A stretch of DNA of 64,000 nt, taken from assembly GCA_049517415.1 (NCBI GenBank), contig JBEKSC010000001.1:128001-192000 (forward strand). Reading direction: 5' to 3'. The notes beneath the pieces are model-generated. The model saw only the letters and a program-made list of their open reading frames with translations, made no database searches and was not told the DNA's origin. Made by a program: the position numbers and the translations under genes. Source of the DNA: Candidatus Bathyarchaeia archaeon (GTDB lineage Archaea > Thermoproteota > Bathyarchaeia > 40CM-2-53-6). Within the stretch, counting starts at the first letter, position 1; each line of letters starts with the position of its first letter. This document shows, piece after piece, positions 33,153 to 64,000 of the stretch.

Positions 33153-34226
33153 TTACTTTCGGCGTGTCGGCGTGCGGCGATCTCCCATAACCATAGCCAT
33201 CACGGCTTTTTGGGCATGCAACCTGTTCTCGGCTTGCTCGAAGTATAGTGAGTAACTCTCATTATCAATTACGTCATCAGTAACTTCTTGTCCCCGGTCC
33301 GCCGGGCCGCAATGCATGTACTTGCCTTTCTTTGTTAGATCCATCATCTCCTGGGTGCATATCCAGTCCTTGAACTGGTCTTGGTAAGTGGTCGCGCCGG
33401 TCTTGTCTAGTGAGTCGCGGTGCGGAGGAAAATAGTTCTTCGGCGACCAGGCCTTCGGGTACACTACATCAGCGCCGTTGAAGGCTTCCTTCATATCGTT
33501 AACTACATGGAACCCGCCGCCGTACCTGTCCGCATTCTTCTTCGCGGCATCAAGGACCACATCTTCTAGTTCGAAGCCTTGCGGGTGCGCGAGGACTACG
33601 TCCATTCCTAGTTGCGTTCCGATTAGAACCTCATTTTGCGGGACGGCTAGTGGCTTTAGTCCGCCAGAGTACGCATAAGAGACAACGAGTTTCTTTCCTT
33701 TCAGTTTAGGAATAGCATTTCTCATAGCCTGGGCATCGGCCAAAGCTTGGAATGGGTGATACATGTCATCCTCCATATTCAACACTGGAATGGTTGCGTA
33801 CTTTGCAAATTCCCGAACAACCTTGTGGCCTCTGCCTATGATCCATTTCGCTGCATCGCCATAGATTCTGATTGCAATCGCGTCCCCGTACCTGCTCAAT
33901 ACACGTGAAACGTCAGAAATTGCTTCAGTTTGATAAGCGACCATGTCTTCGGGAAGCGCGGGTGTGTAAACGTCTTGTGGACTAAGAAAGTGGGCGTGAC
34001 CGCCGAGTTGATACATTCCCGCCTCGAAAGAATTCCTTGTCCTGAGAGAGCGGTTATAGAACATCATGAAGAGGGTTTTTCCAGATAGATAGTGATGCTC
34101 CTTTCGGGAACGAAATAGTTTCCTCAATACGTCGGCTGCGTCTAGAGCTTCCTTAATTTGTTCCTGCGAGAAATCATCTGTATTTAAGAAATGTTTACCC
34201 TTCCATTTGCCTACGAACGACGGCAT
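33153..34226 (-). CDS. YgeW-like (knotted-type) carbamoyltransferase A
   Basis: SLRTRNSFE, HPFQALAD, YAYSGGLKPLAVPQ, GMDVVLAHP, VYPKAW, MHCGPADRG. Confidence 0.85.
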   Translation of the reverse strand: MPSFVGKWKGKHFLNTDDFSQEQIKEALDAADVLRKLFRSRKEHHYLSGKTLFMMFYNRSLRTRNSFEAGMYQLGGHAHFLSPQDVYTPALPEDMVAYQTEAISDVSRVLSRYGDAIAIRIYGDAAKWIIGRGHKVVREFAKYATIPVLNMEDDMYHPFQALADAQAMRNAIPKLKGKKLVVSYAYSGGLKPLAVPQNEVLIGTQLGMDVVLAHPQGFELEDVVLDAAKKNADRYGGGFHVVNDMKEAFNGADVVYPKAWSPKNYFPPHRDSLDKTGATTYQDQFKDWICTQEMMDLTKKGKYMHCGPADRGQEVTDDVIDNESYSLYFEQAENRLHAQKAVMAMVMGDRRTPTRRK

Positions 34227-34452
34227 ATTTGTTACCTCCTCGTGTTGTTTGCTTGCGCGTATTTGAATTAAGCTCTTAGAGAAAGACGTTTCCTTCTAGG
34301 GCAATCACCATGACTCTGTCAATCAATCTCGCTTCATCTCAGAAGAGAAGCACAACCTCTCATTACACCCTTTATGAACTTTCATGATTTTCCTAGTTTC
34401 GGAAAGTTCTATCTAGCTCGAAAGAGTATCTTCGAGACAAATAGAGGAACTT

Positions 34453-35481
34453 TTGATGGCGAAGGTTGATTTGGCCGGTAAGGACTTAATCACCACACAA
34501 GATTGGTCACTTGATGAACTTCGGGCAACACTTAAAGTGGCACGGGAACTGAAGATGAAATATAGGCGCGGCCGCGTCCCACCCCTTCTTCGTAATAAGA
34601 CGTTTTTCATGTTGTTTTATGCGCCTTCGACCAGGACGAGGGCTGCGTTTGAAGCCGGTATGACATACCTAGGCGGCCATGCGCAGTATATCGATGTCTC
34701 AACAACCCGGCTCGGGTCGGGTGAGGCTCCGAAGGATGTGGCTAAGATGTATGAGAAATATGGCCACGGGTTAGGGGTTCGAATTCTAGATTCAGCGATC
34801 GATTATGTTTACGGCGCTGGAATTTCCGTCGTACGAGAGTATGCAAAACATGCGGAGATTCCTGTCATTAACATGGCATGCTGTACCTACCACCCGACTC
34901 AGGGACTTGCGGATCTGATGACCGTTCAGGAATCATTGGGTAAGGTGCAGGGTAAGAAGTATGTCATAATGTGGGGGTACGCGAAGAGCTTCCGTGGCAG
35001 GTGTAGCATACAAGAGGAGGCATTGATCATGCCCCGCTTCGGAATGGATGTTGTTCTGGCCCATCCGCCGGGCTTCGAAATTGACCCAAAGATAGTGGAA
35101 ACAGCAAAGTCAAATGCCACAGAGGCAGGTGGCAGCTTTCAAGTCTCAAACGATTTGAAGTCAGCTATCGAGGGGGCCCATGCGGTCTTCCCTAGAAATT
35201 GGGCGTCATCTGAATTGCTTCAAGTCGGGGCAAGTAAGTTTGGGAAGGAAAGAGAGATGGAATTACATGAGAAGTACCGCAATTGGACATTTAATCAGGA
35301 TTTGCTTGATAGGATGGACAGAAAGGCTGTCGTGACTCATGTACTGCCTGTGCTTCGCGGAGAAGAAGCAACAGATGACGTAATGGATGGCCCCCACTCA
35401 GTTATCTATCCACAAGCTGAGAATGGCATGTACACCAAAATGGCGGTTCTCGCAGTAACCATGGGCCGCAGAAAAAAGTGA
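34453..35481 (+). CDS. YgeW-like carbamoyltransferase B
   Basis: STRTRAAFE, YGAG.SVVRE, HPTQGLAD, PRFGMDVVLAHP, HVLPVLRG, QAEN. Confidence 0.85.
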   Translation: MMAKVDLAGKDLITTQDWSLDELRATLKVARELKMKYRRGRVPPLLRNKTFFMLFYAPSTRTRAAFEAGMTYLGGHAQYIDVSTTRLGSGEAPKDVAKMYEKYGHGLGVRILDSAIDYVYGAGISVVREYAKHAEIPVINMACCTYHPTQGLADLMTVQESLGKVQGKKYVIMWGYAKSFRGRCSIQEEALIMPRFGMDVVLAHPPGFEIDPKIVETAKSNATEAGGSFQVSNDLKSAIEGAHAVFPRNWASSELLQVGASKFGKEREMELHEKYRNWTFNQDLLDRMDRKAVVTHVLPVLRGEEATDDVMDGPHSVIYPQAENGMYTKMAVLAVTMGRRKK

Positions 35482-35496
35482 AGACATCTCCTTGAA

Positions 35497-36747
35497 CTAG
35501 AGTTTCAGTATACGATCCAACTCTTGCATTGAGGCGTCAATGAGAGGTATCTCTGGCATTCCTTTTGTTGCCACATTCGGATCTTTCAAACCGCTTCCCG
35601 TTATCTCCACCACAACACAATCAGCCTTGTCTATATTTTCACGTTCTTTGATCACGCCGGCTAGTGATGTTACCCCGGACGGTTCAGCGAAAATCCCTTC
35701 GTATTTGGCGAGCTTCTTCTGTGCCTCTAGGATTTCGTCGTTCGAAACCGCAACGGCCGCGCCATGAGAGTTGCGGATGGCAACGAGAGCGGCATCGCCA
35801 TCCCAAGGATATGGGTCCATGAGTCCTGTTGCAACGGAGTCGGGCATTTCCCACGGAACTATGTTTTTCGAGTCGGCGCCTTGCTCGTAGGCCCGAATTA
35901 CGGGGGCGCAACCGGTCGATTGGACAGCAGCCATTCTCGGCATTGATTTTATGAAACCTAAGTTCTGAAAATCGAGGTAGCCTTTCCAGTTTCCCGCAAG
36001 TGCACCCCCTGCGCCCACGGGAACGAAGACCCAGTTGGGGACCTCCCAACCGAGCCCTTCCACGATCTCATAGGACATAGTCTTCGGACCCTCTGCTTGG
36101 TACGGGTTCATGGGGCCAAAGCTGGGGCAAGGGTACCAGTTGTTCTTGTCACAAACAGCCTTCAGCATTATCACAGTTGGATCCTCCCCTGATTCTAACC
36201 CTCGAACCTTGACAACATGAGCCCCGTACATCGTTAGCTGGGCCAATTTTCCTATGCTCGCCATCTCTGGGACGAAGGTGATGCATCGGAGCCCTGCCTT
36301 CGCAGAGTAGGCCGATAACGCTGCAGCAGCGTTACCACTTGAGGCTGAAACAACCGTTCGGTAGCCCAGCTCAACAGCTTTCGAGACGCCAACAGTCATC
36401 GGTCTGTCTTTGAACGAGGCGGTCGGATTGCGAGTGTCATCCAGCAGCCAAAGATTATCCAAGCCTAACTTCTCGCCGAATCGGTGTGCCCGCAAAAAAG
36501 GGGTTCCGCCTTCTCCGAGGCTAACTATGTTCTTCGGATCGTTAATCGGCAAAAGTTCCCTGTACTTCCAAACTCCGTTTGGCCTTCTCGACAGTGTCTC
36601 TATCTTGATGGCATCCCGCAAAGCTTCGTAGTCATAGAAGATGTCTAAGCGGCCGTCATCGTGATTTGCGCACCGGATCGCGCCAGAGCTAGGTTCGTAC
36701 TCCCTCCCACAGCGAGCGCACTTCATCAGCTTAAGGAAGGACTTCAT
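35497..36747 (-). CDS. threonine synthase-like PLP enzyme (fold type II)
   Basis: N-terminal CxxC, LGEGGTP, NPTASFKDR, SSGNA, PVGAGG, AEPS, TGSGLK. Confidence 0.85.
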   Translation of the reverse strand: MKSFLKLMKCARCGREYEPSSGAIRCANHDDGRLDIFYDYEALRDAIKIETLSRRPNGVWKYRELLPINDPKNIVSLGEGGTPFLRAHRFGEKLGLDNLWLLDDTRNPTASFKDRPMTVGVSKAVELGYRTVVSASSGNAAAALSAYSAKAGLRCITFVPEMASIGKLAQLTMYGAHVVKVRGLESGEDPTVIMLKAVCDKNNWYPCPSFGPMNPYQAEGPKTMSYEIVEGLGWEVPNWVFVPVGAGGALAGNWKGYLDFQNLGFIKSMPRMAAVQSTGCAPVIRAYEQGADSKNIVPWEMPDSVATGLMDPYPWDGDAALVAIRNSHGAAVAVSNDEILEAQKKLAKYEGIFAEPSGVTSLAGVIKERENIDKADCVVVEITGSGLKDPNVATKGMPEIPLIDASMQELDRILKL

Positions 36748-37796
36748 TCAACAATTTCCCAACGCGATTGATACTTGTCCAGCTGCGTAGTTGTGTACTC
36801 GTCAAGTGGATGTTCTCTTTCTGGGACCTCCACATGTTTCTTTTCGCCGCAGAGTTCCGTTGAGAAGTATCGTTGGCCGGTGTCATTCACCATCGTTACA
36901 ATCGTTTTGTACCCAGGGTGTCGCTTGGCGATCTTTATTGCTGCAACTACATTGCATCCTGAGGATATCCCGCAGAAGATTCCTTCCTCCCTAGCTAGCC
37001 TTCTGCCCATTTCAATGGATTCATCTGAGCCAGTTGTAATTATCCCTGTGAGATAGCTGAGGTCGAGGTTTACCGGGACAAAACCGTCTCCAATTCCTTC
37101 GATCTTATGAGTTCCCCATTGACGATGAGCTAGGATTGGTGCTTCCGACGGTTCCACTGCGAAAAGCGCCACATTCTTTTTCTTCTTTCTCAGGTATTTG
37201 CCAACACCCGTCAAAGTACCCCCAGTTCCTTGTGACGCTAGGAAACAGTCAACTTTTCCTTCGCTCTGCTCCCAAATCTCGGGGCCAGTTGTTTTGTAAT
37301 GGGCGGCAACATTGTCTTTGTTGCTGAACTGGCCGGGCTCCCAATATTTGCCTGGACTTGCTTGCTTTAGTTCCTCAATCTTCTTCAGACATAGGTCCAC
37401 GTCGCTTTCTGCCCCTGGCGTTGTAATGATCTCGGCTCCGTAAGCCCGTATGATCTTCATCCTCTCTTGGCTCATGCCCGCAGGCATAACGATCGTTACC
37501 TTGTGACCTAACGTAGTACCAACAAATGAGCAAGCGATTCCAGCATTGCCCGTAGAAGCTTCCAGTATTTCCATTTCAGGCCGTAATTCCCTGCGCTCAA
37601 TCGCCTTCGTTATCATTTCGAAATATATACGGTCCTTGAGGCTGCCGGTTGGATTCATGTACTCAAGCTTAACCAGAATGTTCGCTTTGACGCCCTCAGA
37701 TGCCGGTATCCTCCGCAATTTGACGAGTGGAGTCCGACCGATCGTTTGGAATACGCCGTCAGCGACTTTACGCGATTTCGTCCACTTTATGCTCAT
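36744..37796 (-). CDS. cysteine synthase family PLP enzyme
   Basis: IGRTPL, NPTGSLKDR, STGNAG, GTGGT, HKIEGIG, GISSG, DTGQRY. Confidence 0.85.
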   Translation of the reverse strand: MSIKWTKSRKVADGVFQTIGRTPLVKLRRIPASEGVKANILVKLEYMNPTGSLKDRIYFEMITKAIERRELRPEMEILEASTGNAGIACSFVGTTLGHKVTIVMPAGMSQERMKIIRAYGAEIITTPGAESDVDLCLKKIEELKQASPGKYWEPGQFSNKDNVAAHYKTTGPEIWEQSEGKVDCFLASQGTGGTLTGVGKYLRKKKKNVALFAVEPSEAPILAHRQWGTHKIEGIGDGFVPVNLDLSYLTGIITTGSDESIEMGRRLAREEGIFCGISSGCNVVAAIKIAKRHPGYKTIVTMVNDTGQRYFSTELCGEKKHVEVPEREHPLDEYTTTQLDKYQSRWEIVE

Positions 37797-37853: not shown

Positions 37854-39245
37854 CTAGGAAACCGCCCACTTGGGTTCGATTTCGAGACCCGCCCTTTCCA
37901 AGAGCTTTTGGCCCCTTTCGTTTGCCTCTTTGAGGATTTCCTCCTCTTCGAGTGTTTTGAGGTTTCTGTTTTCCATTACGACTTCACCATCAATTATCAC
38001 GGTTTCGACATCGGTTCCCTCCGCCGCGTAAATGAGGTGTGAAACTGGGTTGAAAACTGGTGTCAGGTGAGGTTTGTTCATTGCTATCATGATTACATCA
38101 GCTTTCTTATTCACCTCGATCGACCCCAAGTCTGTCTGCTTGCCAATGGCTTTTGCTCCGTTGATCGTGGCCATTTCGAGAACTGTCTCAGCATTCATCA
38201 CTAGTGGGTCGAGCAACCTTGCCTTTTGAAGTAGCGAAGCCGTTTTCATTTCACGGACAAGGTCGTAGCAGTTGTTGCTTGGGCCGCCGTCACATCCGAG
38301 ACCCACATTCACTCCCGCTTGCAACATTTCCGGGACCTTTGTAATTCCAGATGCAAGTTTCATGTTCGATGATGGGCAATGGGCGACACTACCTCCCTTA
38401 TCGGCCAATATTCTCCATTCCTTCTCAGTGAGCCAGACACCGTGGGCGAAAACAACATTCTGGCCCACTAAACCGACTTCATTCATGAATTCCGCTGGCA
38501 ACATTCCAAATTCTTTCTTGGTATACCGAACGTCCTCCTGAACCTCGCTCAGGTGCATCGTCACTCCCGTTCCGAGATCTCGAGCGCCGATTGCGATACG
38601 TTCGTACAGGTCTTTCGTGCAGCCACCAAGGGACCGAGCACCATACCAAACCTTAATCCTCTCGTTCGCTTTGCCGTCCCACCGTTTGAAGTGTGATTCG
38701 ATTTCGCGAAGGCAGGTTTCAGGGTCTTCGATCATCCCGGGGTGCATTATGCTTTTTTCAGTTCCGTAGCCCGGCAGTCCCATAACAGTCTTTGAGAGGA
38801 TGCCACGCATTCCTGATTTCTGCACGCTTTCGGCTATGCCATCGAAGCCATAACGCGTATGCAATAGGCTCTCGAGGAAGGTTGTCGTTCCTGATTTTAT
38901 CATTTCAAGCATGCACAGATTGGCACTTGCCTTTCCATCCCCTGCTTCGAAGTTGCCTTGAAGGGGCCAGACAAATTTCTGGAGCCAATCTATTAGTGAC
39001 GTATCGTCCGCGCATCCACGGATAAGAGCTTGGGCTAGGTGAACGTGCGTATCAATAAGCCCCGGGAGGACAACCATCCCTTTTGCGTCTATTTCGTACT
39101 CAGGCCGCGGATGCACTCTAATTTGGTCTGCCTTCCCCACTTCGGCGATACGGTCGTTTTCGACCCGAACTGCTCCGTCCCTAATAATTCGCCGATTCGC
39201 ATCCATGGTTATGACTGTCCCGCCGGAAATCAGAATAGACGCCAT
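37854..39245 (-). CDS. metal-dependent amidohydrolase (SsnA/MtaD/8-oxoguanine deaminase-like)
   Basis: PGLIDTHVH, HLSE, FAHGV, HCPSSNMKL, GLGCDG; start at ATG 39245. Confidence 0.88.
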   Translation of the reverse strand: MASILISGGTVITMDANRRIIRDGAVRVENDRIAEVGKADQIRVHPRPEYEIDAKGMVVLPGLIDTHVHLAQALIRGCADDTSLIDWLQKFVWPLQGNFEAGDGKASANLCMLEMIKSGTTTFLESLLHTRYGFDGIAESVQKSGMRGILSKTVMGLPGYGTEKSIMHPGMIEDPETCLREIESHFKRWDGKANERIKVWYGARSLGGCTKDLYERIAIGARDLGTGVTMHLSEVQEDVRYTKKEFGMLPAEFMNEVGLVGQNVVFAHGVWLTEKEWRILADKGGSVAHCPSSNMKLASGITKVPEMLQAGVNVGLGCDGGPSNNCYDLVREMKTASLLQKARLLDPLVMNAETVLEMATINGAKAIGKQTDLGSIEVNKKADVIMIAMNKPHLTPVFNPVSHLIYAAEGTDVETVIIDGEVVMENRNLKTLEEEEILKEANERGQKLLERAGLEIEPKWAVS

Positions 39246-39360
39246 GATGACCACTTCGCCGGGTGCTTGGATTGCACACGTCTGCTTTAATTGAATTTCC
39301 TGTGCAACAAACCTGACAAGCATAGAAGGGCGAGGCTGATTCTGTCAAAACGCTCGACCA

Positions 39361-39703: not shown

Positions 39704-40507
39704 GTGACTGAAGATTCGAAGCGGTTGTTCTATGCGTTCTTGATCTCTGCGATTCTTCTTGTAGTAGTGATTCTCCCAGTCTATGTTCTTAGGATTCCGT
39801 TCGTTTCAAGTTTACCCAAAAGATTGAAGATTGGCGATTCTTGGACCTACCAAGTCATCTTTCCTGATGGGGAAAGTTACGAATTGACCGAATCAGTCAA
39901 GGATACGGTTCAATTGAACGGAACCGAAACCTATCTCCTTCTCCGAGACGACCCACAGCATGCTTCAACCGAATACCTGTGGATAACTCCAGATTGGCAC
40001 GAAGTCAAAACATTCCAGCCTAACATCGGGAACATCGTTGCAAACTCGACCGTCATTTATTCTCCTCCCATCGAGTTACTTCAAATTCCGTTACGCGTTG
40101 GCGACAAGTGGATCGTCAACAGCACTAAGACTATCATAACCCAGCTAAAGAATTCGAAAATCCAAACAATAACGCAATTGGTCGAGAAAAGAGAATTTGA
40201 GAAAATCGACGAGATTTCAACTCCAGCAGGATCATTTCGCGCCTTCAAGGTCAGTGTAACCATGAATGGCGTACCTATTGAGATTACATGGTTTGATACA
40301 TCATTGGGTCAAATCGTAAGAGGAGAATATTACAATGGTCCAGAGGTGGTCACGCAGTCGCTCGTGTCTTACTCAGAGACGTTTCCAGCGACTTCCACAT
40401 TTACCATGGCCTTTTATCCAACCGTGAACCGTGCTTGGAGACATTTCGGAAGTTATATCTACAACATCGTTCGAACCTTTACTGAGTTGAAAATATCTTA
40501 TGACTGA
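39704..40507 (+). CDS. membrane-anchored extracellular hypothetical protein
   Basis: N-terminal TM; beta-rich GDSWTY / GDKW / TPAGSF pattern; overlaps the BMP start. Confidence 0.65.
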   Translation: MTEDSKRLFYAFLISAILLVVVILPVYVLRIPFVSSLPKRLKIGDSWTYQVIFPDGESYELTESVKDTVQLNGTETYLLLRDDPQHASTEYLWITPDWHEVKTFQPNIGNIVANSTVIYSPPIELLQIPLRVGDKWIVNSTKTIITQLKNSKIQTITQLVEKREFEKIDEISTPAGSFRAFKVSVTMNGVPIEITWFDTSLGQIVRGEYYNGPEVVTQSLVSYSETFPATSTFTMAFYPTVNRAWRHFGSYIYNIVRTFTELKISYD

Positions 40508-41702
40508 AAAAGCACCAAAGAAGAACTCGAAGACGCTCATTGCTGGCGTGGTTATAATCGTCATTATAGTCGCAGCTGGAGCAGCCTACTACTTTACCAC
40601 TACCCCAATGGGAGCAACGCAGACCACTACGGCTATGCAATCAACCACATCAGCCACATCTTCAGCCCCTCTCAAAATTGCGATGATCCTACCTGGCAGA
40701 ATAGATGACCTCTCATGGAATCAGGCGGGTTACACTTCTTTCGAGAATCTGTTGACTAGCTATAACCAAGGCATCAATACCTGTGATTGTTGGGTACAGA
40801 ACCACGAAGACCAGGCCAAAATTGAAGCGGACATAGCGGATTTCGCGAGTAGAGGCTACAATTTGATCATCGGTCACGGGTTCGAATTCCAAGTTCCAGT
40901 TCAGGACGTAGCGTCCCAATATCCAAACGTCAACTTTCTAGTCGTAGGCGGATGGAATAACTCATTGCCTAACGTTGCTATCGCTGACGTTCGCACTGAC
41001 CAGACAGGCTACATCTTAGGCTACCTTGCCGGAAAGATGACGCATACAGACAGGATAGGGTACATCATGGGCGCTAGAGTGGCTGAGTTGGCACGGTTTG
41101 AGCCCAACTTCGCTCAGGGAGCACATGATGCCAACCCGGCTATTACCTTCACATACGGAGCATTACCTGGCGGAGGAAACGGCATACTATCCGGAGGAAC
41201 CATTAGCGTCGTAGCGGTGGGTGACTTCCACGATCTTGAAGGAGCCAAAGCTGATGCTGAGTTAATGGCGGGACAGGGCGTTGACGTCATAGCAACTATG
41301 GGCGACGGCGTCGTACTAGGATCGATCGAAGGTGCCATTGATAAGAATGTGTCTTTGATCGGTAACGGCGTTGACATTGCTGACAACCCACCTGTAGGCG
41401 CAGAGAAACTGGTCCTTGCCAGCGGTTCATGGAAATGGGATATCGTCTTCTCGCAATGGATCAACGACACCAATCAGGGCAAGCGGAACGGCAAGTACTG
41501 GGCGAACATGAATAATGGTGGATTACACATAGAGATCAACCAGAACAATGTACCCTCTGCAGTCCAGCAAGAAATCTTGAACATTGAGGGACAAGTGAAG
41601 TCAGGTCAGATTCAGACAAATCCGCTTGGGCCTCTATTGATGAGCCCCAGCGCATTCATCACTGCTGTAACATTACAGGTAACTCGCTATTCGACAGACT
41701 AG
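40500..41702 (+). CDS. BMP family (purine nucleoside-type) ABC transporter substrate-binding protein
   Basis: TM anchor, Thr-rich linker, DDLSWNQAG, IIGHGFEF, GYLAG.MT, F.QGA. Confidence 0.88.
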   Translation: MTEKAPKKNSKTLIAGVVIIVIIVAAGAAYYFTTTPMGATQTTTAMQSTTSATSSAPLKIAMILPGRIDDLSWNQAGYTSFENLLTSYNQGINTCDCWVQNHEDQAKIEADIADFASRGYNLIIGHGFEFQVPVQDVASQYPNVNFLVVGGWNNSLPNVAIADVRTDQTGYILGYLAGKMTHTDRIGYIMGARVAELARFEPNFAQGAHDANPAITFTYGALPGGGNGILSGGTISVVAVGDFHDLEGAKADAELMAGQGVDVIATMGDGVVLGSIEGAIDKNVSLIGNGVDIADNPPVGAEKLVLASGSWKWDIVFSQWINDTNQGKRNGKYWANMNNGGLHIEINQNNVPSAVQQEILNIEGQVKSGQIQTNPLGPLLMSPSAFITAVTLQVTRYSTD

Positions 41703-41777
41703 CTTCTCTAACGCAACCGCTCCCCTCACTCTTTTTTCTTTCACATTAATTAAATTTGATAGCGGAAGATTTCAAGA

Positions 41778-43325: not shown

Positions 43326-43329
43326 AGCA

Positions 43330-44397: not shown

Positions 44398-44400
44398 ATT

Positions 44401-53238: not shown

Positions 53239-53248
53239 GTGGGCTCTG

Positions 53249-55654: not shown

Positions 55655-55924
55655 CCTGTTTTCACGCCTTAACCAATGTGTGTACGAACGCTTGTGGTTT
55701 CTGATTCTATGGTTTGGTAAGCCGTAATTTGAGGGATCACATCAGTATTCTCAGGCGACTAAGGTTTGAGTTCAGGTCGATGCTCTGAATGTGGTGGATC
55801 ATTGGATTCAAGGAACCGTAAGGTTTGCACTTCATGTTATTCTGAGCGAATTCAAGGCTCGGGTGGCGACAGCTTAGATTAAGGACAGAAACCTTTGAAG
55901 CGGGATCAGGCCTAGTATTCCGCT

Positions 55925-56047
55925 ATGCCCGAACGTTCATTGAAGCTTGAGAAGCCGGTTCAATGCAGTGAATGCGGAGCAATCGTTACGCTCCGAAAGA
56001 ATCTTGTTGGCCGGAAATGTAGGGATTGCGCAGACAAGAAGGCTTAG
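55925..56047 (+). CDS. 40-aa zinc-ribbon microprotein
   Basis: Manually read MPERSLKLEKPVQCSECGAIVTLRKNLVGRKCRDCADKKA; stop overlaps the convergent Cas2-like stop. Confidence 0.55.
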   Translation: MPERSLKLEKPVQCSECGAIVTLRKNLVGRKCRDCADKKA

Positions 56048-56280
56048 GTTATTCTTTCAGCCCTGTACCAATGGGATACCCCGTAAACTGAGGCTAAGTC
56101 GTGGATTTGTTTAGCGATCCCCATATCATCTAGAATCCAAACTGATTGGGTGCTCCTTTTTCGGATTTCAATGTTTGCGGCTCCCAATAATTTCCATAGG
56201 CGCCTGTAGAATTGCATGTGTCGGCTTGCAGGCTCAGCCGGAATGTCATAGTCCACAACGAACCATTCTATTCCAGTCAA
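56044..56280 (-). CDS. Cas2/VapD-like ferredoxin-fold protein (orphan)
   Basis: FVVDYDIP....R..FYR.L..L......STQSVW corresponds to the Cas2 hhhYDI...R...L.....R.Q.SVF signature; 78 aa. Confidence 0.65.
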   Translation of the reverse strand: MTGIEWFVVDYDIPAEPASRHMQFYRRLWKLLGAANIEIRKRSTQSVWILDDMGIAKQIHDLASVYGVSHWYRAERIT

Positions 56281-56462
56281 CGTTCTAGTTCCTCCAAGAC
56301 GTTACAGGTATAACGCAGGCGGGTAATAGGTGTTACGTGTCAAGTGCATTTACATTAACCGTAACCTAAACCATGAAGCTCACTGGGGCGTCTACGGCTA
56401 GAACCGTAACAAGTATAACGTTCCTTACTCGCCTTGGTTGTCAGAGTATTGCGTTTTATGGT

Positions 56463-56885
56463 TTAGTGGCGTTGTGTGGTTCCGTTTACGGTATGCTGTT
56501 TGGAACTTGGATGTGATTTCGATTTCCGTCTATTGTAAGTAAGTGTTACGGTGCCGCTTGCCCCGATTCCCAATGGCTTTGCTGACAGTTCCCCTGAAAT
56601 TGTTATCTGTGAGAGTTCGAAGTTATCGGGGATTGCTTTTTCATATTTCGCAGCGATTGCTCGTGGGATAAGTTCCCGCAGGATTTCTTTACGGGGTCTC
56701 CTCCGGCCTGCTGTAAGGCTAAAGTTACCGACCTCGCTCAGACTCATGACATTCAGTTTGTGTTCCAGTACCTGTTTCTGAACCTGTTTTGAGACTTTAA
56801 GGGGTTCGACCTTCAAAATGTCATCTTCGGTCAGAGTAAACAATGCTGCATTCTCTTTGCGATGTTTCCTGGGCACAGTTGTCAA
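56463..56885 (-). CDS. hypothetical protein with Pepco/Trypco-like C-terminal beta domain
   Basis: FELSQITISGELSAKPLGIGASGTVTLTYNR pattern. Confidence 0.5.
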   Translation of the reverse strand: MTTVPRKHRKENAALFTLTEDDILKVEPLKVSKQVQKQVLEHKLNVMSLSEVGNFSLTAGRRRPRKEILRELIPRAIAAKYEKAIPDNFELSQITISGELSAKPLGIGASGTVTLTYNRRKSKSHPSSKQHTVNGTTQRH

Positions 56886-57324
56886 CTCGACTAGATTTCA
56901 AGACCGTTAGGGTATTTCATTTATGGTTTACTTGTCTAGCTTAGATGATTGAATCATTCGCATTCAACATTCAAACCTGCATGCGCCCGTGAATGCTGGG
57001 ATTTCTGGGAATCAGCCGCCGAAATCTAGGGACCCATCCGCCTACCCACCAGCCCCCACCAAGCGGTGACACACCACAAAACCCACACACCATCCTGATC
57101 ACGTGATCCTTCACCCGCCTGCACGCGTGATACCCCGCACCCTCCATGATCCAACGTCGCCAAGACGACACCTAAGAAAGAATAAACAACAACACAATAT
57201 GATAGAAATTATCTTATCTTACTTTCTTTTTTTCCCCTACTGCTTTCTTCATGTTTAAGGGTACTCTGCGATGTAAGTTGATTTTATGGTTTGCTCGCTG
57301 TTAACGTGGCAAATACGCCGTATG

Positions 57325-57822
57325 CTACTCTGGGATTCCCAGATACTTCTTAAGAAATTGTCTGATTTCCTCCAACTTGACGCCGAGGACTGGGGGTGCT
57401 CCGATCGAAAGAAAGAGGGCATCGCCTGGTAGCTCATCCTTCTCGCCGCTGGACATGAAGGCGTCCAGTTTCTCCAGTTCGTCTATGATGCCATCTAGCC
57501 CCGTGCGAATTTCCCTCGGAAGGAAGAAAGTCCCCCCAACTGACACAAGTTTCTGATAATGTTCCTCATAGGCCTTCGAGGTGTCGGCTAGGAGCGCGCG
57601 TGCTTCTTGGATGGTTGCATCCACTGAAACTTCGCCAACACTCATTTTCAATGACTCCATGGCACCCACGAACCGGAGGAAATCCGGTGTGAGAACCAGC
57701 TCTCGGAAGTATTGGCGGGATCGCTGTCGTTGCAAGAAATATGCTTGAACTAACACGGTCAGGAGGGCTCCAATCCCAAGGTACCCGAGAATTTGAAGGA
57801 GCGACTGAACATCTACTTCCAC
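57325..57822 (-). CDS. N-terminally membrane-anchored helical hypothetical protein
   Basis: Single N-terminal TM followed by an all-alpha domain. Confidence 0.65.
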   Translation of the reverse strand: MEVDVQSLLQILGYLGIGALLTVLVQAYFLQRQRSRQYFRELVLTPDFLRFVGAMESLKMSVGEVSVDATIQEARALLADTSKAYEEHYQKLVSVGGTFFLPREIRTGLDGIIDELEKLDAFMSSGEKDELPGDALFLSIGAPPVLGVKLEEIRQFLKKYLGIPE

Positions 57823-57964
57823 GAAAGGTCAGCAGTAACCGAATTAGCGTCTAGCCTTAATCAATCATGCTCCCTAACTGACCGCGAGCTTAGGGAAGAA
57901 TAGGGGTCCGACCGCCGCTTGGCAGAATTTCTTCATGGGATGGAGTTCTACGAAAAACTCCCGG

Positions 57965-59416
57965 TCATTTTCGATTAAGGTCCTGCCTGCGACCGCATTT
58001 AAGACAGAATAGGCTTCCACTAGGAAGTCTATGGCCACAGTTGAGACAGAACTGAACTTTATTACGTCGCTTGAGGGTCACAGCACCTACTGAGACGATT
58101 GCAATAATGATGACAGCGCTGGCAGGCAGGATGGTACCAGGATTCAGCGACCACTCGGCATGAATTGTCATAGGAGCATTAACGGTTATCAGAGAGGACC
58201 CGTCAGGTCGTGGGCTTCCGGTGTAGTCACCTCCCCATCCACCAAAAATAGACCGTACACCCAATGCCCCCAGTATGCCTTCAGCTTGGATTGAGGTAGG
58301 CCTCACGCCAATTTTTACGTCGATGCCCGCGTCATACCAACCTGAGCCAAAGGTTGATCCCAGAGTTGAGGTGACTGTCACCAAGTACTGCTTAACGTAG
58401 ACGGCTGAGAGTGACATGTTCTGATCGGCAGCGAATCCGCTCGCTGTATAGGTCCCGTCAGTCCAGCCTTCTAGGTAATATCGTTCGCCACCACTAATTG
58501 GAACGGTCAACTGCGCTTGCGGCGCAACCTCAGAACCTTCTACGTACCATCCGTTGCCCATCGCAGAACCAACTGAGGAAGTTACACTAACGTAGAACCA
58601 TGGCCAGAGGCTCTGCCCTTCAGCCTTAATGGGTAGACCGCTTCCTGCTAACCAATGATTATTCTCACCAGTGACACTTTCAACTCCGTAGGGAAAACCA
58701 CCATTGTAAGTGGCGCTTGTTACACCGTAGCAGCATAATGACGCAGCGGCGGACGCTTGATGCCAAACTCCAGTGCTGTCGCGGTAGGACAGGTTGCGGA
58801 ACTCCACAGGACCGAGTACGTTGTCCGTCCAATACGTCTGCGCCGATTCAGCCACGGCATCTGGCCCGGAGCCTCCTGAGTCGCCTACGCTGAGGTCGAC
58901 CTGTCCGAGTTGTTGATCGTTTGCGAACGCCGACCAAATCGTTCCCGTGCTCGCAAGCGAGAACTTGACCCATGTCCCATTCATTCCAGCGGTCCGACCT
59001 TCGTTTCCCAAGAATCCACCCGTATTTTCTTTAGCTGTCCCTGGAAGGAAGTACTCCCAAAACAAGCTCGGATGTCCGCTGTTATACTGGGGATTCATCA
59101 TGTACCCTGCCTGTATGAATGCATCGTTCGGTAGGTCAACGCCTACCCAGTAGGAGTCGTCAGTGTCAACATGATTGAGTTTCTGATCCAAAATCCTGAC
59201 TTCGACACTCGCCCCAGTTATTGGCTGCCCGAATTTATCTGCGTAACCGCTGTTGCTTTCTCCCCACGCTCCAACTTGAAACCAGTATGTGTTGGACATC
59301 GTCGTTTCCGCCATTCCAGAGTGAGATGGTAGATGAGGCGTTAAGCTAAAGGAACGAACTGTAGGCACTAAGGGTAGAGAGGTAAGAACCAGCAGTAAGA
59401 GTAGTCCCTGTCTCAT
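57965..59416 (-). CDS. secreted membrane-anchored G1/A4 glutamic peptidase-like protein with C-terminal zinc ribbon
   Basis: Signal peptide; YWVGVD....FIQAGY...FWEY and VAE motifs; two V.V.S..G...G.GWY repeats; TM; FCLNCG...FCLKCG. Confidence 0.65.
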   Translation of the reverse strand: MRQGLLLLLVLTSLPLVPTVRSFSLTPHLPSHSGMAETTMSNTYWFQVGAWGESNSGYADKFGQPITGASVEVRILDQKLNHVDTDDSYWVGVDLPNDAFIQAGYMMNPQYNSGHPSLFWEYFLPGTAKENTGGFLGNEGRTAGMNGTWVKFSLASTGTIWSAFANDQQLGQVDLSVGDSGGSGPDAVAESAQTYWTDNVLGPVEFRNLSYRDSTGVWHQASAAASLCCYGVTSATYNGGFPYGVESVTGENNHWLAGSGLPIKAEGQSLWPWFYVSVTSSVGSAMGNGWYVEGSEVAPQAQLTVPISGGERYYLEGWTDGTYTASGFAADQNMSLSAVYVKQYLVTVTSTLGSTFGSGWYDAGIDVKIGVRPTSIQAEGILGALGVRSIFGGWGGDYTGSPRPDGSSLITVNAPMTIHAEWSLNPGTILPASAVIIIAIVSVGAVTLKRRNKVQFCLNCGHRLPSGSLFCLKCGRRQDLNRK

Positions 59417-59427
59417 TCGCCACTACG

Positions 59428-60282
59428 CTACTCTTGAGGAGTGCCACATTTGTTGCAGAACTTCGACCCGGTAGGAAGAGCTTTTCCACAATTTAGGCAA
59501 AATTGTCCATTAGAGGTGCTGCTCTTGGCCCGACTTTTTCTGACTTTAGGTCTAGACCTAACAACGTACAATGCAGCTATAATCACGATGACCACAACGA
59601 CAATTGCCACGATAATCGTGGGGTCTACACCAAAGTTTAACCCTGTGACTGCTTGCGTTATTTGAGTTGAGCTAACCGTTTGCGTTGCCGTCAGCGCCAC
59701 CTGATTCGTAACCATGTTGTAGACCGTAGAAGTTTGTTCTTGATTGAAAGTAGCGACTAGAACAAATGGGGTCGTGACTTTAGGGACGCTTGCGCCTAGT
59801 GTAGTGGATGAAAAGATGAAATAGTACCAGCCGGTTGGTGGGTTTTTCCAATCCAATGAATACGTTGAGATTAAACCATATACCGCAACTTCGGCCGCAT
59901 ACGGTATATTGCCGCATAGTGAATTACTGAACGCATAAAACTGATTCTGGTTCATAATGTAGAAGTCGATTCTGCTGCTTGGCGGTCCAATTGTGCCGGT
60001 AACCTCTATGGTGCCTGGGTCAACGGTTATGTTCCATGGATCATAAGTGCAAACACGTCCTGCGTTACTGGCTAATATGTCAGTCGTGCTAATGAAAGTG
60101 TTTGACGATACAATCGTTTGGGTCGTAGTTCCGACAGTGTTCGTGGAATAGACAGCTGATGTGAAGAGACCAGTCGTTGTCATAACATTTGTTTCGGTCG
60201 TAAATGTCTGACTCGCACTAGATGGAATTGAAGCTATTGCAAACACGATGGATAGAATCAAAAGAAGCGTGCCAAATCGCAA
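59428..60282 (-). CDS. secreted Thr-rich membrane protein with C-terminal zinc ribbon
   Basis: Signal peptide, Thr-rich stalks, IDFYIM...GWYYFIF beta domain, TM, FCLNCG...FCNKCG. Confidence 0.75.
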   Translation of the reverse strand: MRFGTLLLILSIVFAIASIPSSASQTFTTETNVMTTTGLFTSAVYSTNTVGTTTQTIVSSNTFISTTDILASNAGRVCTYDPWNITVDPGTIEVTGTIGPPSSRIDFYIMNQNQFYAFSNSLCGNIPYAAEVAVYGLISTYSLDWKNPPTGWYYFIFSSTTLGASVPKVTTPFVLVATFNQEQTSTVYNMVTNQVALTATQTVSSTQITQAVTGLNFGVDPTIIVAIVVVVIVIIAALYVVRSRPKVRKSRAKSSTSNGQFCLNCGKALPTGSKFCNKCGTPQE

Positions 60283-60602
60283 AAGAATCCGAATACTGGC
60301 TCAACAGATTTCCATTTAACACTTTACATTATAACGTATGCCATCGGACTGGTGATGATGACCTGCTACCTATCGGTGGCTGTAGGTTTCGCAGCGGTTT
60401 TTTATAACGTATGGTCTCTCGCTCAAGACTAATGATTACGTTGCTGATGCTCTTTTCAGTAAATAGTCCCATATTTCAGTTCGGTTGACGATTTCGATCT
60501 ATGTCTTGTGGTTAGTTATTTCACTTTGTGTCGATTTGCACTTGACAGACCGAATGCCGCAGCGTCTGCTTGAAGGTTCTAGCTTTGCACGGAACTAAGG
60601 TA

Positions 60603-61784
60603 CTATTTCTTTTGGCGGTTCTTGGCCTTCTGCTTGGTGGGTTTCCCTGCTTCGAAGTAGGATAATTTTTTTCGCAGTTCAGCGATTTCCTGGTCACGAG
60701 CAGTTAACTGCCTTTCAATTTTCGGCAGTTTGCCCAGTATTCCGTCAACAACTTCGTTCTGTTGGGTGGCGAGGCGTTCTATTTTCGTGAGTTGTTCGTC
60801 CCGCTTTGCGTCTGTGTTTACGCGTTCTTGCTGTAGGCGTTCAATCTCCCTTTCGAGCTTACTTGTTCGACCGTTGCCCTCCCAAGCCTTGCGTAATTGT
60901 TCGTGAACATGGTCCTCATTCTCCCAGAGTTTGTTGTAGCCCTGCTCGGAAAATTGGCTATGACCTATGGTGAACTTGCGAACGTCCCATTCTACGCCTT
61001 GCGTTCCGGCGTATGTGAACCAAGCATCCCGAATTTCGTGGCACCCGACACCCTTCATATCGGTAAGTCCGGCTCGACTTCTCGCGCGTCGCCATTCCGC
61101 CTGTAGATTGTAGTCCTGAACCATATTGCCCCGCGTATTCGTGAAGGGGAGCCTTCCGCCTTTTCGAAGATAGTTTTCGATTAGATTTCGGGGAATTAGC
61201 GAATAGAATTTCCTTTTCGCGTTCTTTCTAGGCGGATGGATGGCCTTGACGTAAGGCTTCTTGGTGGTTAATTGCTCGCTTACGTCCTTAGTAATGTCGG
61301 GGCGAGTATTCCATTTGATGAAGCTAACTTCTCCCATGGGTGCATAGGTGAAGATTGTATAGATTGTTTTGTACGGTTCTGGACAGTGGTTGATGATCTC
61401 CCTTATTTGATCTAACGTGAGTTCCTTGACATCTCCCTCAGATTTCACAGTGATGCGCTCAGAGGGAAGAAAGACTCCGTGATGTTGCAAGAAACTGCGG
61501 AACGATTTGATCTGCATTTTGATTGAGCCAGTTGGAAACTCAAACGCTTGGTCCCGTAGTTCTTGCCATAATCCTCCCAAGTCGCCTTTCATGCTTTTGC
61601 AGTGCGCTAGAAATTCAGTCGGTGTTTCACGACGCTTCTCAAGAAGCCTTTGCAATTGATACGCATAGTAAGTGGCTGTTGCGTTGGAGCCCTTCAGGAG
61701 TTTGCTATACCAGGGTTTGATTAACGGGTCTTGGATAAACGGTTCAATCTTCGCTATTCTAGCGGTCGTATGGTTTGCCTTCAG
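60603..61784 (-). CDS. tyrosine recombinase/integrase with C-terminal coiled coil
   Basis: HEIRDAW (HxxR), FTIGH, GY catalytic Tyr; frame stays open upstream of TTG 61655, encoding DPLIKPWYSKLLKGSNATATYY; proposed CTG start at 61784. Confidence 0.8.
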   Translation of the reverse strand: MKANHTTARIAKIEPFIQDPLIKPWYSKLLKGSNATATYYAYQLQRLLEKRRETPTEFLAHCKSMKGDLGGLWQELRDQAFEFPTGSIKMQIKSFRSFLQHHGVFLPSERITVKSEGDVKELTLDQIREIINHCPEPYKTIYTIFTYAPMGEVSFIKWNTRPDITKDVSEQLTTKKPYVKAIHPPRKNAKRKFYSLIPRNLIENYLRKGGRLPFTNTRGNMVQDYNLQAEWRRARSRAGLTDMKGVGCHEIRDAWFTYAGTQGVEWDVRKFTIGHSQFSEQGYNKLWENEDHVHEQLRKAWEGNGRTSKLEREIERLQQERVNTDAKRDEQLTKIERLATQQNEVVDGILGKLPKIERQLTARDQEIAELRKKLSYFEAGKPTKQKAKNRQKK

Positions 61785-61805
61785 GCCCGAATACTGTGGT
61801 AAAGG

Positions 61806-61813
61806 TATAAAAA
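61806..61813 (-). promoter_or_regulatory. TATA box of the integrase gene
   Basis: TTTTTATA on the minus strand, ending about 22 nt before CTG 61784 (leaderless spacing). Confidence 0.5.
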
Positions 61814-62067
61814 TTCTCGCTATTCTTGAAGGTAAAGAGCTACCCGTTTCATGGTTCGAATACTACCTCATAGTTGAAGATTAGCATTACATATGTGAAA
61901 CTTCTGATTTCTGACTTGAGGAGACCTTCCGCTACCGGTTTCTGATACGTGAAAATGTCTGTTATGTACCGCAACTCATGAACGGTTAAGAATGAGCTAA
62001 TGGAACTCTTTCTGGGGTCCCGATCACTCGGAGTTCATCCGGTCCAGGCCTAGAGGTGTCAGGTTGA

Positions 62068-62544
62068 GTGGGCATTGAGCACGCCATAAGTTTCAGGCTT
62101 AACGGGCAAAATGTAACAGTGAACTGTCCCTCTGCTTACACCTTGCTTGAGGTTCTTCGCGAGCAACTGCACGTGACAGGGCCGAAGGAAGACTGCGCTA
62201 AGGGCGAATGCGGGGCCTGCACAGTACTGATGAACGGCCAACCCGTCTGTTCCTGCCTCGTCCTAGTTTCACAAGCGCAAGGCTCTGAGGTCATTACATC
62301 AGAAGGGCTCGTGAAAGATGGAAAACTGAACCCAGTTCAGCAAGCCTTCCTGGAGGAGGGAGCCGTTCAATGCGGCCATTGTATTCCAGGCATGATCGTT
62401 TCAGCCTCAGCACTCTTAATGCGTAACCAGAAACCTTCCGTGGAAGAAATTCGGACAGCCCTATCAGGCAACCTCTGCAGGTGCACTGGCTACAGTAAGA
62501 TAATCACAGCCGTTCAGAAGGCCGCAAAGAATTGGAGTCATTGA
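62068..62544 (+). CDS. xanthine/CO dehydrogenase family [2Fe-2S] small subunit
   Basis: C..GECGACTV...C, QCGHC.PG, GNLCRCTGY. Confidence 0.93.
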   Translation: MGIEHAISFRLNGQNVTVNCPSAYTLLEVLREQLHVTGPKEDCAKGECGACTVLMNGQPVCSCLVLVSQAQGSEVITSEGLVKDGKLNPVQQAFLEEGAVQCGHCIPGMIVSASALLMRNQKPSVEEIRTALSGNLCRCTGYSKIITAVQKAAKNWSH

Positions 62545-62548: not shown

Positions 62549-63433
62549 TTGATGCGCTCCGAAATCGATGTAATAACTCCCCGGACCTTGGATGAAGCGC
62601 TAAACATCCTCCATCAAGGTCACGCCGAGCTTAAGATTGTGGCCGGTGGCTCAGATGTAATTGTGCAACTTCGAGACGGCGTCCTGAAAGTCGAGAAACT
62701 TCTGAACATACTGTCTCTGAAGGAACTGAGATTCATACGGGAGCAAGATGGCTTGATTCACGTTGGTTCCCTAGCCACCTATAGCGACATCACGAATTCC
62801 CAGTTAGCGAAAGAGCATGCTTGGGTTCTTGTTGACGCTTCTAGGCAGATTGGTGCGGTCCAACTCCAGAATACGGCAACGTTAGGTGGGAACCTAGGTA
62901 ACGCTTCACCGGCAGGGGACAGCCTCCCCCCATTGTATGCTCTCGAGGCTGTTGTTGTCACGAGGAGTAAAAGCGGTCGACGCGAAACCCCCGTCGAACA
63001 ATTTTTCGTCTCCTATAGAAAGACCGCACTTAGGCCAGACGAATTGATTGAAGAAGTCTACTTCAAGCCAATGAATTCAAAGGATCGCGGCGCCTACATG
63101 AAACTCGGCCTGCGTGAAGCTAATGCGATTTCAATCGTTGACGTGGCGGTTGTACTGCGCGAGAGAAGCAGGGACGGTTCGTTTGCTGAGGCGAGAGTTG
63201 CCCTAGGTGCTGTTGCGCCTGTAATAACGCGAGCTCGCAAGAGCGAGAAAGCGTTAGAGCATACCCCGTTGAAGGAGAAAACGCTGCGGGAAGCTGCCAC
63301 GCTGGCCGCAGATGACGCTGCGCCGATAGATGACATTCGTGGTTCAGCTGAGTACAGGAAGGAGATGGTCGTTTCATCAGTCTACCAGGCCCTTTACGAG
63401 GCCGTGTACGGGAGGAAGAAGAATCACGAGTAA
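62549..63433 (+). CDS. xanthine/CO dehydrogenase family FAD medium subunit
   Basis: AGGSD, ATLGGNLGNASPAGD, DDIRGSAEYR. Confidence 0.93.
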   Translation: MMRSEIDVITPRTLDEALNILHQGHAELKIVAGGSDVIVQLRDGVLKVEKLLNILSLKELRFIREQDGLIHVGSLATYSDITNSQLAKEHAWVLVDASRQIGAVQLQNTATLGGNLGNASPAGDSLPPLYALEAVVVTRSKSGRRETPVEQFFVSYRKTALRPDELIEEVYFKPMNSKDRGAYMKLGLREANAISIVDVAVVLRERSRDGSFAEARVALGAVAPVITRARKSEKALEHTPLKEKTLREAATLAADDAAPIDDIRGSAEYRKEMVVSSVYQALYEAVYGRKKNHE

Positions 63434-63665
63434 TCCTGTCCACATCCGGGTCAGAATCTTTGGCGCTCCTTCGCTCGCGCTGGAGAGCAACGAACTAACA
63501 CTTGAATTAGGCGAAGGCGCGACAATTGAAGATCTGCTCAACTCCATCCCAGTTAAGGACAAAAACTACCTCTACATTGTTCGAGAAGGAGTCAGGCTCA
63601 AACCATCAACCAGACTCAATAACGGCGATGAAATCTTGGTCGTCCCACCGATAGCGGGAGGTTGA
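63426..63665 (+). CDS. MoaD/ThiS/SAMP ubiquitin-like sulfur carrier (probable ACG start)
   Basis: VRIFG...T..DLL...L.NGD....PPIAGG C-terminal GG; GGAGG at 63411 then ACG 63426 overlapping the upstream stop. Confidence 0.8.
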   Translation, partial: TSNPVHIRVRIFGAPSLALESNELTLELGEGATIEDLLNSIPVKDKNYLYIVREGVRLKPSTRLNNGDEILVVPPIAGG

Positions 63666-63670
63666 GTCAG

Positions 63671-64000
63671 ATGACTGAGACCGTTGTACTCGGCAAGGGA
63701 AAAATGAAGTGGGTTGGAAAATCAGTCGTTCGGCGAGACGGTGCGGGCAAAGTTACCGGTGAGACCAAGTTCTTTTCGGACATGTCAGTACCGAAGATGC
63801 TCTATGCTAAGGTTGCGAGAAGCAAATACCCTCATGCTCTGATTAAGAGAATCAGCACGGAGAAGGCTGAAGCGGTACCTGGCGTTGTGGCGGTTCTTAC
63901 CCACAGGGATGTCCTTGGACTCAACGGGTTTGGGATCCTTCTGCCCGACCAACCCGTTCTATGTAACGACAAGGTGAGATACCTAGGAGACGCAATCGCT
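63671..64000 (+). CDS. xanthine dehydrogenase family molybdopterin large subunit (3'-truncated by window)
   Basis: Manually read VGKSVVRRDGAGKVTG...RSKYPHALI...PGVVAVLT..D...KVRYLGDAIA. Confidence 0.9.
   Translation, partial: MTETVVLGKGKMKWVGKSVVRRDGAGKVTGETKFFSDMSVPKMLYAKVARSKYPHALIKRISTEKAEAVPGVVAVLTHRDVLGLNGFGILLPDQPVLCNDKVRYLGDAIA

Follow-up and report, generated by a model that had tools for sequence, protein, structure and literature searches.

The window analysed here is a stretch of 64,000 nucleotides (G000:C1:128001-192000) from a 2.65-Mb genome with a Bathyarchaeia host (G000), of which the interval 33153 to 64000 carries two carbamoyltransferases, herein named CT1 and CT2, together with two pyridoxal-phosphate (PLP) enzymes, an amidohydrolase, adenine deaminase (Ade), a purine-type transporter, an LLM-family oxidoreductase and enzymes of the xanthine dehydrogenase (XDH) family. 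This cluster very probably belongs to the broad reductive pathway of purine breakdown through 2,8-dioxopurine, and its sequences somewhat favor double phosphorolysis by CT1 and CT2, with the replacements proposed below. The first-pass annotation had read these genes as the reductive urate pathway in an archaeal form, with enzymes replaced by non-orthologous ones. This proposal gained support from two archaeal classes, several bacterial phyla, the distribution of SsnA (52/56 versus 2/18 genomes) and a single Nitrososphaerales contig, but its mapping of genes to steps needs correction, as the window amidohydrolase is not at the SsnA step, the genes lie in three loci and the carbamoyltransferases form two clades. 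In E. coli and Clostridium, the pathway employs XdhD-YgfM or XdhAC, YgfK/UacX, SsnA, HyuA, YgeW, YqeA, YgeY, as well as YgeX (PMC12507026; bioRxiv 10.1101/2025.04.24.650524; PMC12990295; here and below, the literature is quoted from the available portions of the papers cited). The archaeal variant was not found described in the literature searched, subscription journals and supplements being outside the search.

The linkage of these genes exceeds chance. CT1 orthologues (at least 79% identity) were identified in 19 of the 22 other genomes of the genus, and the order CT1-carbamate kinase (CK)-CT2 was found in 18 of the 19 genus regions fetched around CT1/CT2, the remaining region beginning at CK. 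The LLM gene lies within 10 kb of the first XDH set (XDH1) in all 15 genus genomes examined (adjacent in 8, with 1-10 kb between in 7). Other members recur in the genus regions at lower frequency (number of genomes, including G000: amidohydrolase 15, LLM 11, Ade 10, ThrC-like 10 and CysK-like 6), and in three genomes (G013, G016 and G019) the CT block is apart from the amidohydrolase-Ade-LLM-XDH block. In G013 and at L034-L035 and L052-L053 (G016, G019; L-numbers denote fetched loci), CT1-CK-CT2 adjoin a different XDH, LLMs, an M20 peptidase, a CoA-transferase, hydantoinases and a PyrB paralogue. Across the class, the CT2 query gave matches in 22 of 201 genomes; apart from G000's own count, two genera account for 19 of these, and so patchy a distribution makes the CT pair the mark of a niche trait.

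Outside the genus, CT1 loci were collected by a GTDB scan, and the best 80 of 168 were analysed, of which 37 are bacterial (Bipolaricaulota, Caldisericota, Bacillota, Fraserbacteria and records titled Thermotogae). These 37 loci carry CT2 (36), CK (35), the XDH molybdenum subunit (20), a PLP-beta enzyme (18), hydantoinase (12) and SsnA (6), and a close YgeY (at least 40% identity) in one. At L134 the order is LLM-SsnA-ThrC-like-PLP-beta-CK-CT1-CT2; at L114 YgfK occupies the place of LLM; and Thermococci carry CT1-SsnA-XDH. For 25 genomes the CT1 locus showed no CT2, or none that was certain, and 24 of these carry a CT2 orthologue elsewhere. The whole set stands together on a single 25-kb contig of the Nitrososphaerales genome G059 (G059:C51; L203 plus L104), which carries CK, the amidohydrolase (55%), hydantoinase, SsnA, LLM (58%), a nucleotidyltransferase-like gene, an APC permease, a phosphoesterase, CT2 (56%), XDH, ThrC-like (50%), CysK-like (64%), CT1 (75%) and a second XDH. 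Co-conservation of the gene set thus spans two classes of archaea and several phyla of bacteria; co-occurrence across archaea was one of the checks that the first-pass annotation had asked for.

Presence and absence were scored in 56 genomes selected for having CT1; as these are mutually related and often incomplete, the counts are descriptive only. The SsnA family (E<=1e-75) was detected in 52 of the 56 (7 over cut-off), against 2 of 18 relatives without CT1, both incomplete genomes of the same genus (0/15 outside the genus). YgeW was detected in none of the 56, while YgeY and YgeX were each over cut-off in 2, with any YgeY match at 1e-40 in 21. The hydantoinase family was discarded as a marker, since its count (55/59) also catches dihydroorotases in the controls.

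Some loci met in these collections deserve mention in their own right. L078, L081 and L095, titled Acidiferrales, Methylomirabilota and Acidoferrum, carry CT1 of 84-87% identity in Bathyarchaeia-like context, and the titles are probably wrong. At L059 and L060 (G021:C31, G018:C2), a CT1 paralogue (55%) lies beside LLM and a gene that we take to be creatininase-like, possibly for phosphorolysis in creatinine breakdown. Near SsnA and hydantoinase at L123, L128, L129, L205 and L221 are genes presumably related to aldehyde:ferredoxin oxidoreductase, possibly another replacement at the redox step. At L140 the order is CT1, true YgeY, CT3-like, CT2, which puts three carbamoyltransferases and the hydrolase side by side.

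The features of the interval are as follows (family calls by profile scores, written as score/cut-off in bits; G014 is the nearest relative used for alignments).
33153..34226, minus strand: CT1, catabolic carbamoyltransferase nearest to knotted AOTCase/YgeW (357 aa; SLRT60, HPFQ157, HCGP305, ENRLH333)
34276..34326, minus strand: 17-codon relic of the deleted CK gene (blastn and junction alignment against G014)
34453..35481, plus strand: CT2, second carbamoyltransferase, of its own clade (342 aa; STRT59, HPTQ147, HVLP296 intact)
35497..36747, minus strand: ThrC-like PLP enzyme without the threonine-synthase motif (GPMNPYQ/VGAGG)
36744..37796, minus strand: CysK-like PLP enzyme (cysKM 349/344; HKIEGIGD)
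37854..39323, minus strand: TRZ/ATZ (MtaD-like) amidohydrolase (PRK07228 438/522; SsnA model 217/455)
39704..40507, plus strand: DUF3108-like membrane-anchored protein (in 4 genomes of the genus-region set)
40500..45342, plus strand: BMP/PnrA-type nucleoside-purine ABC transporter, 4 genes (PF02608; variably present in relatives)
45430..46224, minus strand: nucleotidyltransferase-like protein (Atlas features 0.99; 39% orthologue in L203)
46394..47962, plus strand: APC-family permease (PF13520; 47% orthologue in L203/L104)
48155..49123, minus strand: metallophosphoesterase (PF14582; 43% orthologue in L104)
49260..51056, plus strand: Ade (TIGR01178 566/472)
51125..52228, minus strand: LLM-family oxidoreductase (PF00296; true start probably near 52160)
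52125..61852, no strand: 9.7-kb element inserted in the LLM 5' end (absent from G014)
60603..61655, minus strand: integrase-like frame of the insert (without Pfam match; G003 has a homologue at this site)
62068..62544, plus strand: XDH1 2Fe-2S subunit (family profile)
62549..63433, plus strand: XDH1 FAD subunit (family profile)
63330..63665, plus strand: MoaD/ThiS-like sulfur carrier (PF02597)
63662..64000, plus strand: XDH1 molybdenum subunit, start only (full length 772 aa; PucD 637/784)

Every gene listed in the first-pass annotation is an intact open reading frame at its coordinates; the label YgeW-like proved loose, the SsnA part of the label SsnA/MtaD-like was not sustained, and 52.1-61.8 kb turned out to be an insert absent from G014. 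The cluster is not one operon: CT1 (minus) and CT2 (plus) are divergent, the ThrC-like, CysK-like and amidohydrolase genes are on the minus strand, the ABC transporter and Ade on the plus strand, and LLM again on the minus strand, followed by 9.7 kb of unrelated frames and then by the XDH set, of which the molybdenum subunit crosses the window end. Beyond that end are a second XDH set (XDH2; molybdenum subunit XdhA 555/780) and then XdhC.

Both carbamoyltransferases had been taken as YgeW-like, but neither is a member of that family. The YgeW models gave 163-170 bits for CT1 and 126-135 for CT2 against cut-offs of 453-500 (TIGR03316, 163 and 126 of 500), and the best models for both were those of AOTCase/OTCase, below cut-off (CT1, 275/288 on the AOTCase model). 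CT1 and CT2 (357 and 342 aa) are shorter than YgeW (about 396 aa), and share 38% identity with each other, 33% (CT1) and 30% (CT2) with YgeW, and 25-26% with PyrB. On a quick tree of 77 rows, with YgeW on a long branch, the CT1 and CT2 clades were recovered with SH-aLRT values of 99 and 98 and similar branching, and CT1, CT2, YgeW and CT3 were joined (99), apart from PyrB and OTCase. The carbamoyl-phosphate motifs SxRT, beta-4 Arg, HPxQ and HxxP are kept in both, while the OTCase/ATCase motifs DxxxSMG and RxQxER, present in the OTCase on C42 and in PyrB, are absent from both. The assignment of CT1 or CT2 as YgeW, OTCase or ATCase was thus rejected by scores, tree and motifs.

The second-substrate residues, taken from Table 1 of PMC4581275, distinguish the two enzymes. 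CT1 keeps the YgeW loop with the equivalents of S200/K203 and of K270 (AYS..KPLAVPQ, YPKAW), and also those of AOTCase E144/K252/R322. AOTCase acts on the side chain of an alpha-N-acyl amino acid, and removal of the 3-ureido group by CT1 would therefore fit. The 3-ureido-first order is that of bioRxiv 10.1101/2025.04.24.650524; in PMC12507026 the order for YgeW is reversed. In CT2, both Lys positions of YgeW are occupied by Arg, as in at least 90% of 31 members of its clade, and ENG replaces ENR; CT2 has neither the proline-rich loop nor the C-terminal Arg, the last also missing in ATCase and UGTCase, which are alpha-amino enzymes (table of PMC4581275). These traits of its sequence suggest that CT2 may act on the 2-ureido group. 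The predicted model of CT2 (pLDDT 96) has the carbamoyltransferase fold, and matches AOTCase (TM score 0.87) and unknotted OTCase (0.85) alike. Taken together, CT1 and CT2 likely replace YgeW plus YgeY, and as CT2 falls with CT1 and YgeW and away from PyrB, it looks independent of the ATCase-derived solutions.

The kinase that should receive carbamoyl phosphate is missing between CT1 and CT2 in G000. Alignment with G014 gave 93% identity up to 34277 and 94.5% from 34279, with 896 bp lost between; the corresponding segment of G014 is the CK gene, of which a 17-codon start relic remains at 34276-34326. An assembly error was rejected, as the deletion joint was bridged without differences in 4/4 runs examined, none flagged as a possible source, each with a contig identical to 34014-34586; two of the four also show the longer form, from a relative living alongside that retains the 896 bp, and the loss of CK is therefore real. 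The window DNA recurs in peat and wetland metagenomes, no RNA dataset being among those listed with it, and CT1 homologues of 94-96% identity are titled Candidatus Bathyarchaeia. An intact CK passing PRK12352 is present at C1:24597-25622, and would have to serve in place of the deleted copy.

For the remaining genes, G000 was searched by tblastn with E. coli proteins. The absence of HyuA, YgeY, YgfK and CK from the window holds, save for the CK relic; genome-wide, where the first-pass annotation had asked for a look, a hydantoinase-like gene (C30), a D-hydantoinase and CK (both C1) were found, but neither YgeY nor YgeX, and YgfK gave no match in G000 or G014 (UacX was not searched for). The SsnA-like gene at C30:7051-8373 (411/455) has SsnA as its best family by 100 bits and 35% identity to E. 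coli SsnA; divergent from it is a hydantoinase/allantoinase-like gene (C30:9156-10496; 28% to HyuA), with mocA beside the pair. The pair recurs at L167, L171, L176, L177, L210 and L214. GuaD is on C3. The pathway genes of G000 are split over three loci. A D-hydantoinase passing its cut-off (C1:36807) lies inside a pyrimidine-type island. This second island, C1:18614-40604 (L004, L005), carries two LLMs, an MmsA-like aldehyde dehydrogenase, a class III aminotransferase, CK, a BMP ABC transporter, CT3, CT4, the D-hydantoinase, pyrBI and a cytosine deaminase-like gene, and looks like phosphorolytic reductive pyrimidine breakdown.

The ThrC-like protein has GPMNPYQ/VGAGG where 4/4 bacterial solved structures shown have NSVNPxR/VGNAG, and its orthologues lack the motif likewise; the NSxNPxR and GNAG motifs of threonine synthase have a role in phosphate binding. 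A canonical ThrC paralogue (C4:13205) and another CysK (C14:61428) are encoded elsewhere. HxIEGIGD is common to the CysK-like enzyme and to the PLP-beta enzyme found in its stead in other clusters; a pair of ThrC-like plus CysK-like or PLP-beta enzyme thus recurs where YgeX is absent. The pair likely replaces YgeX, the simplest guess for its division of work being the handling of D- and L-diaminopropionate. The window amidohydrolase, previously called SsnA/MtaD-like, is of the TRZ/ATZ-MtaD type and was rejected as SsnA (217/455, versus 411 for the C30 gene); by its family it is likely a purine deaminase feeding the pathway.

LLM orthologues were identified in 27 of 69 genomes (16/16 of the genus, 10 other archaea, one bacterium and 0/13 controls), adjoining SsnA in G059 and G077; among 23 bacterial SsnA loci, YgfK is alongside in 17 and an LLM orthologue in one. 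LLM scores below all named F420-family cut-offs, and CofD and CofE are over cut-off in G000. An F420-dependent luciferase-family yanthine reductase has been proposed (PMC12507026), and LLM is likely an F420-dependent 2,8-dioxopurine reductase replacing YgfK. The Mo subunits of XDH1 and XDH2 group with those beside CT1/CT2 in bacteria. That of XDH2 carries Arg at what we take to be the xanthine-binding position, presumably equivalent to bovine R880, and that of XDH1 does not. Identification of a urate reductase by E606 of E. coli XdhD was abandoned, as the region is unalignable.

Combining these genes, we propose the following route, in which the substrates of all steps are those that we infer. 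Purines would enter by the BMP ABC transporter, be deaminated by Ade, the window amidohydrolase and GuaD, and be converted to 2,8-dioxopurine by the two XDH-family enzymes. LLM would reduce the ring with F420H2, and SsnA and hydantoinase of C30 would open both rings to give 2,3-diureidopropionate. CT1 would then remove one ureido group, probably the 3-ureido, by phosphorolysis, and CT2 the remaining one, yielding 2,3-diaminopropionate and two carbamoyl phosphates in all, from which CK could make up to 2 ATP; the ThrC-like/CysK-like pair would convert 2,3-diaminopropionate to pyruvate and ammonia. The balance, if so, is urate + 4 electrons + 2 Pi + 2 ADP -> pyruvate, 4 NH3, 2 CO2 and 2 ATP.

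Several findings weigh against this route. The local CK is deleted in this species. The C30 SsnA-like protein is below its cut-off (411/455), and so is its hydantoinase partner (allantoinase 324/358, D-hydantoinase 310/393). ThrC-like and CysK-like pass the thrC and cysKM cut-offs, and are absent beside CT2 in about half of the genus regions. CofG was not found in any of the five genomes searched. Weaker M20 genes are present in 5 more of the 37 bacterial CT1 loci, sub-cut-off M20 matches in 19 further CT1 genomes, and L140 has CT1, CT2 and true YgeY together. The 56 genomes are a related set, chosen for CT1 and with many incomplete members. The first-pass annotation had named an XDH large subunit standing apart from purine enzymes as evidence against a purine pathway, and this was found in part: E. 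coli XdhD and XdhA group with neither of the Mo subunits, the E606 region does not align, and among solved structures nicotinate dehydrogenase and 4-hydroxybenzoyl-CoA reductase match best.

The same purine route might instead yield one ATP, with CT1 and CT2 acting in parallel on stereo- or regioisomers of the diureide or as a heteromer, and the second ureido group leaving by hydrolysis (amidohydrolase or M20) or as urea through PLP-dependent beta-elimination from albizziin. The occurrence of two carbamoyltransferases with two PLP enzymes (ThrC/CysK or ThrC2/PLP-beta) fits such a doubled route, their near-obligate co-occurrence fits a heteromer, and YgeY stands beside both in L140; but CT1 and CT2 are divergent here and unlinked in many archaea, which would be uncommon among subunits, CT2 remains together with CK and ThrC-like where the set is split (L207, L208, L211, L215), and YgeY is over cut-off in just 2/56. 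We hold this explanation to be unlikely, though worth serious attention. Another ureide or N-heterocycle as substrate (allantoin via phosphorolysis of allantoate and oxalurate in UGTCase-like manner, pyrimidines, or a non-purine ring) appears improbable. Its support comes from the C30 hydantoinase, which scores best as dihydroorotase/allantoinase, from XDHs not groupable with E. coli XdhD/XdhA, and from the different XDH/LLM/M20 set beside the CT pair in G013, G016 and G019. Against these stand the tracking of the CT pair by SsnA, the presence of Ade and of a purine-type transporter within the cluster, and the separate C1:18.6-40.6 kb island with its own D-hydantoinase, class III aminotransferase, MmsA-like aldehyde dehydrogenase and two other carbamoyltransferases; moreover, the allantoin route is not known to use PLP fold-II lyases or a reductase. 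CT2 is also outside the ATCase branch, where UGTCase lies (quick tree; PMC4581275).

That biosynthetic paralogues (ArgF/ArgF', ThrC, CysK) came by chance to neighbor unrelated catabolic genes is very unlikely. Databases do name CT2 relatives 'ornithine carbamoyltransferase', CT1 comes close to the AOTCase cut-off (275/288), those of thrC and cysKM are passed, the orientation is scattered, and a 9.7-kb insert is present; but canonical OTCase (C42, DVWVSMG), PyrB, ThrC and another CysK are encoded elsewhere in the genome, and the set's contiguity in a second class of archaea and, in part, among bacteria largely refutes it.

The 9.7-kb insert is outside the pathway. In G014, LLM and XDH1 are 205 bp apart. 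The element sits in the LLM 5' end and restores the LLM start; at its right end the first nine codons of LLM recur as an orphan copy. An 8-bp core at 52125 and 61824 was recognized by hand, the repeat search giving no long att repeat; no tRNA was found, and a tRNA insertion site was rejected. Both junctions were bridged in 4/4 runs, excluding an assembly error, and no excision joint was found in the same four. The frame at 60603..61655 we take to be integrase-like from its HxxR motif. With differing inserts of 1-10 kb in 7/15 genus genomes, the LLM 5' end is an insertion hotspot in a protein gene, not a tRNA. The segment 40700-52135 has 68-79% identity to G014 between flanks of 93-94%, and 45.4-52.1 kb is 82-87% identical to G013/G016/G019, which suggests replacement of the segment from another lineage. 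Within it, the nucleotidyltransferase-like, APC permease and metallophosphoesterase trio (45430-49123) moves as a unit, being also in G059 and, off-cluster, in G006. Upstream of CT1 (26634-31170), an HdrD/FadF-like Fe-S membrane protein, a 2,4-diaminopentanoate dehydrogenase-like gene and a class III aminotransferase are syntenic in many relatives.

It is an even matter, in our estimate, whether peat Bathyarchaeia ferment purines in the full form proposed, i.e., with an F420 ring reductase, two new carbamoyltransferase specificities (2 ATP per purine), a two-enzyme PLP replacement, and CT2 as an alpha-ureido phosphorylase arisen from the YgeW/AOTCase branch independently of ATCase-derived enzymes. 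An uncultured lineage widespread in peat and soil would thereby gain a concrete, testable energy substrate, and archaea would join the gut bacteria in which the pathway was solved no earlier than 2025. With two single-step phosphorylases the ATP yield would be doubled, 2 instead of one, and the order in which the ureido groups are cut, an open question in PMC12990295, would become directly testable. Several proteins that now go by the names ornithine carbamoyltransferase, threonine synthase and cysteine synthase would have to be re-annotated.

In comparison with known systems, the cluster shares with the E. coli/Clostridium route the XDH-family enzymes, SsnA-family hydrolase, cyclic amidohydrolase, catabolic carbamoyltransferase plus CK, PLP fold-II enzyme, purine deaminases and uptake. 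It differs in being archaeal and without the YgfK, YgeW, YgeY and YgeX families, having instead LLM, two new carbamoyltransferase clades and the ThrC-like/CysK-like pair; in G000 the pathway is spread over three loci, and its XDHs are not orthologous to XdhD. In the available text of bioRxiv 10.1101/2025.04.24.650524, neither 'archaea' nor 'F420' occurs. By description, the LLM gene in YgfK's place has a parallel in Chloroflexota, whose SsnA clusters include a reductase of the luciferase family, putatively F420-dependent and itself only proposed (PMC12507026). Pseudo-ATCases and UGTCase are known in purine clusters; in Nocardioides, for instance, a pseudo-ATCase has ygeW, xdh and hyuA as neighbors (PMC4016543). 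The F420-LLM idea (Chloroflexota) and a second carbamoyltransferase (Nocardioides) are thus already known, and the available portions of those papers do not cover this archaeal set. CT1 resembles knotted AOTCase and YgeW/YTCase (PMC4581275) in its extended loops and key residue equivalents, but is 33% identical to YgeW, shorter, and under all cut-offs, and CT2 has Arg for both Lys. Like the pseudo-ATCase/UGTCase clusters, this one holds a second carbamoyltransferase in purine degradation; unlike those ATCase-derived enzymes, CT2, with 25% identity to PyrB, groups with CT1 and YgeW.

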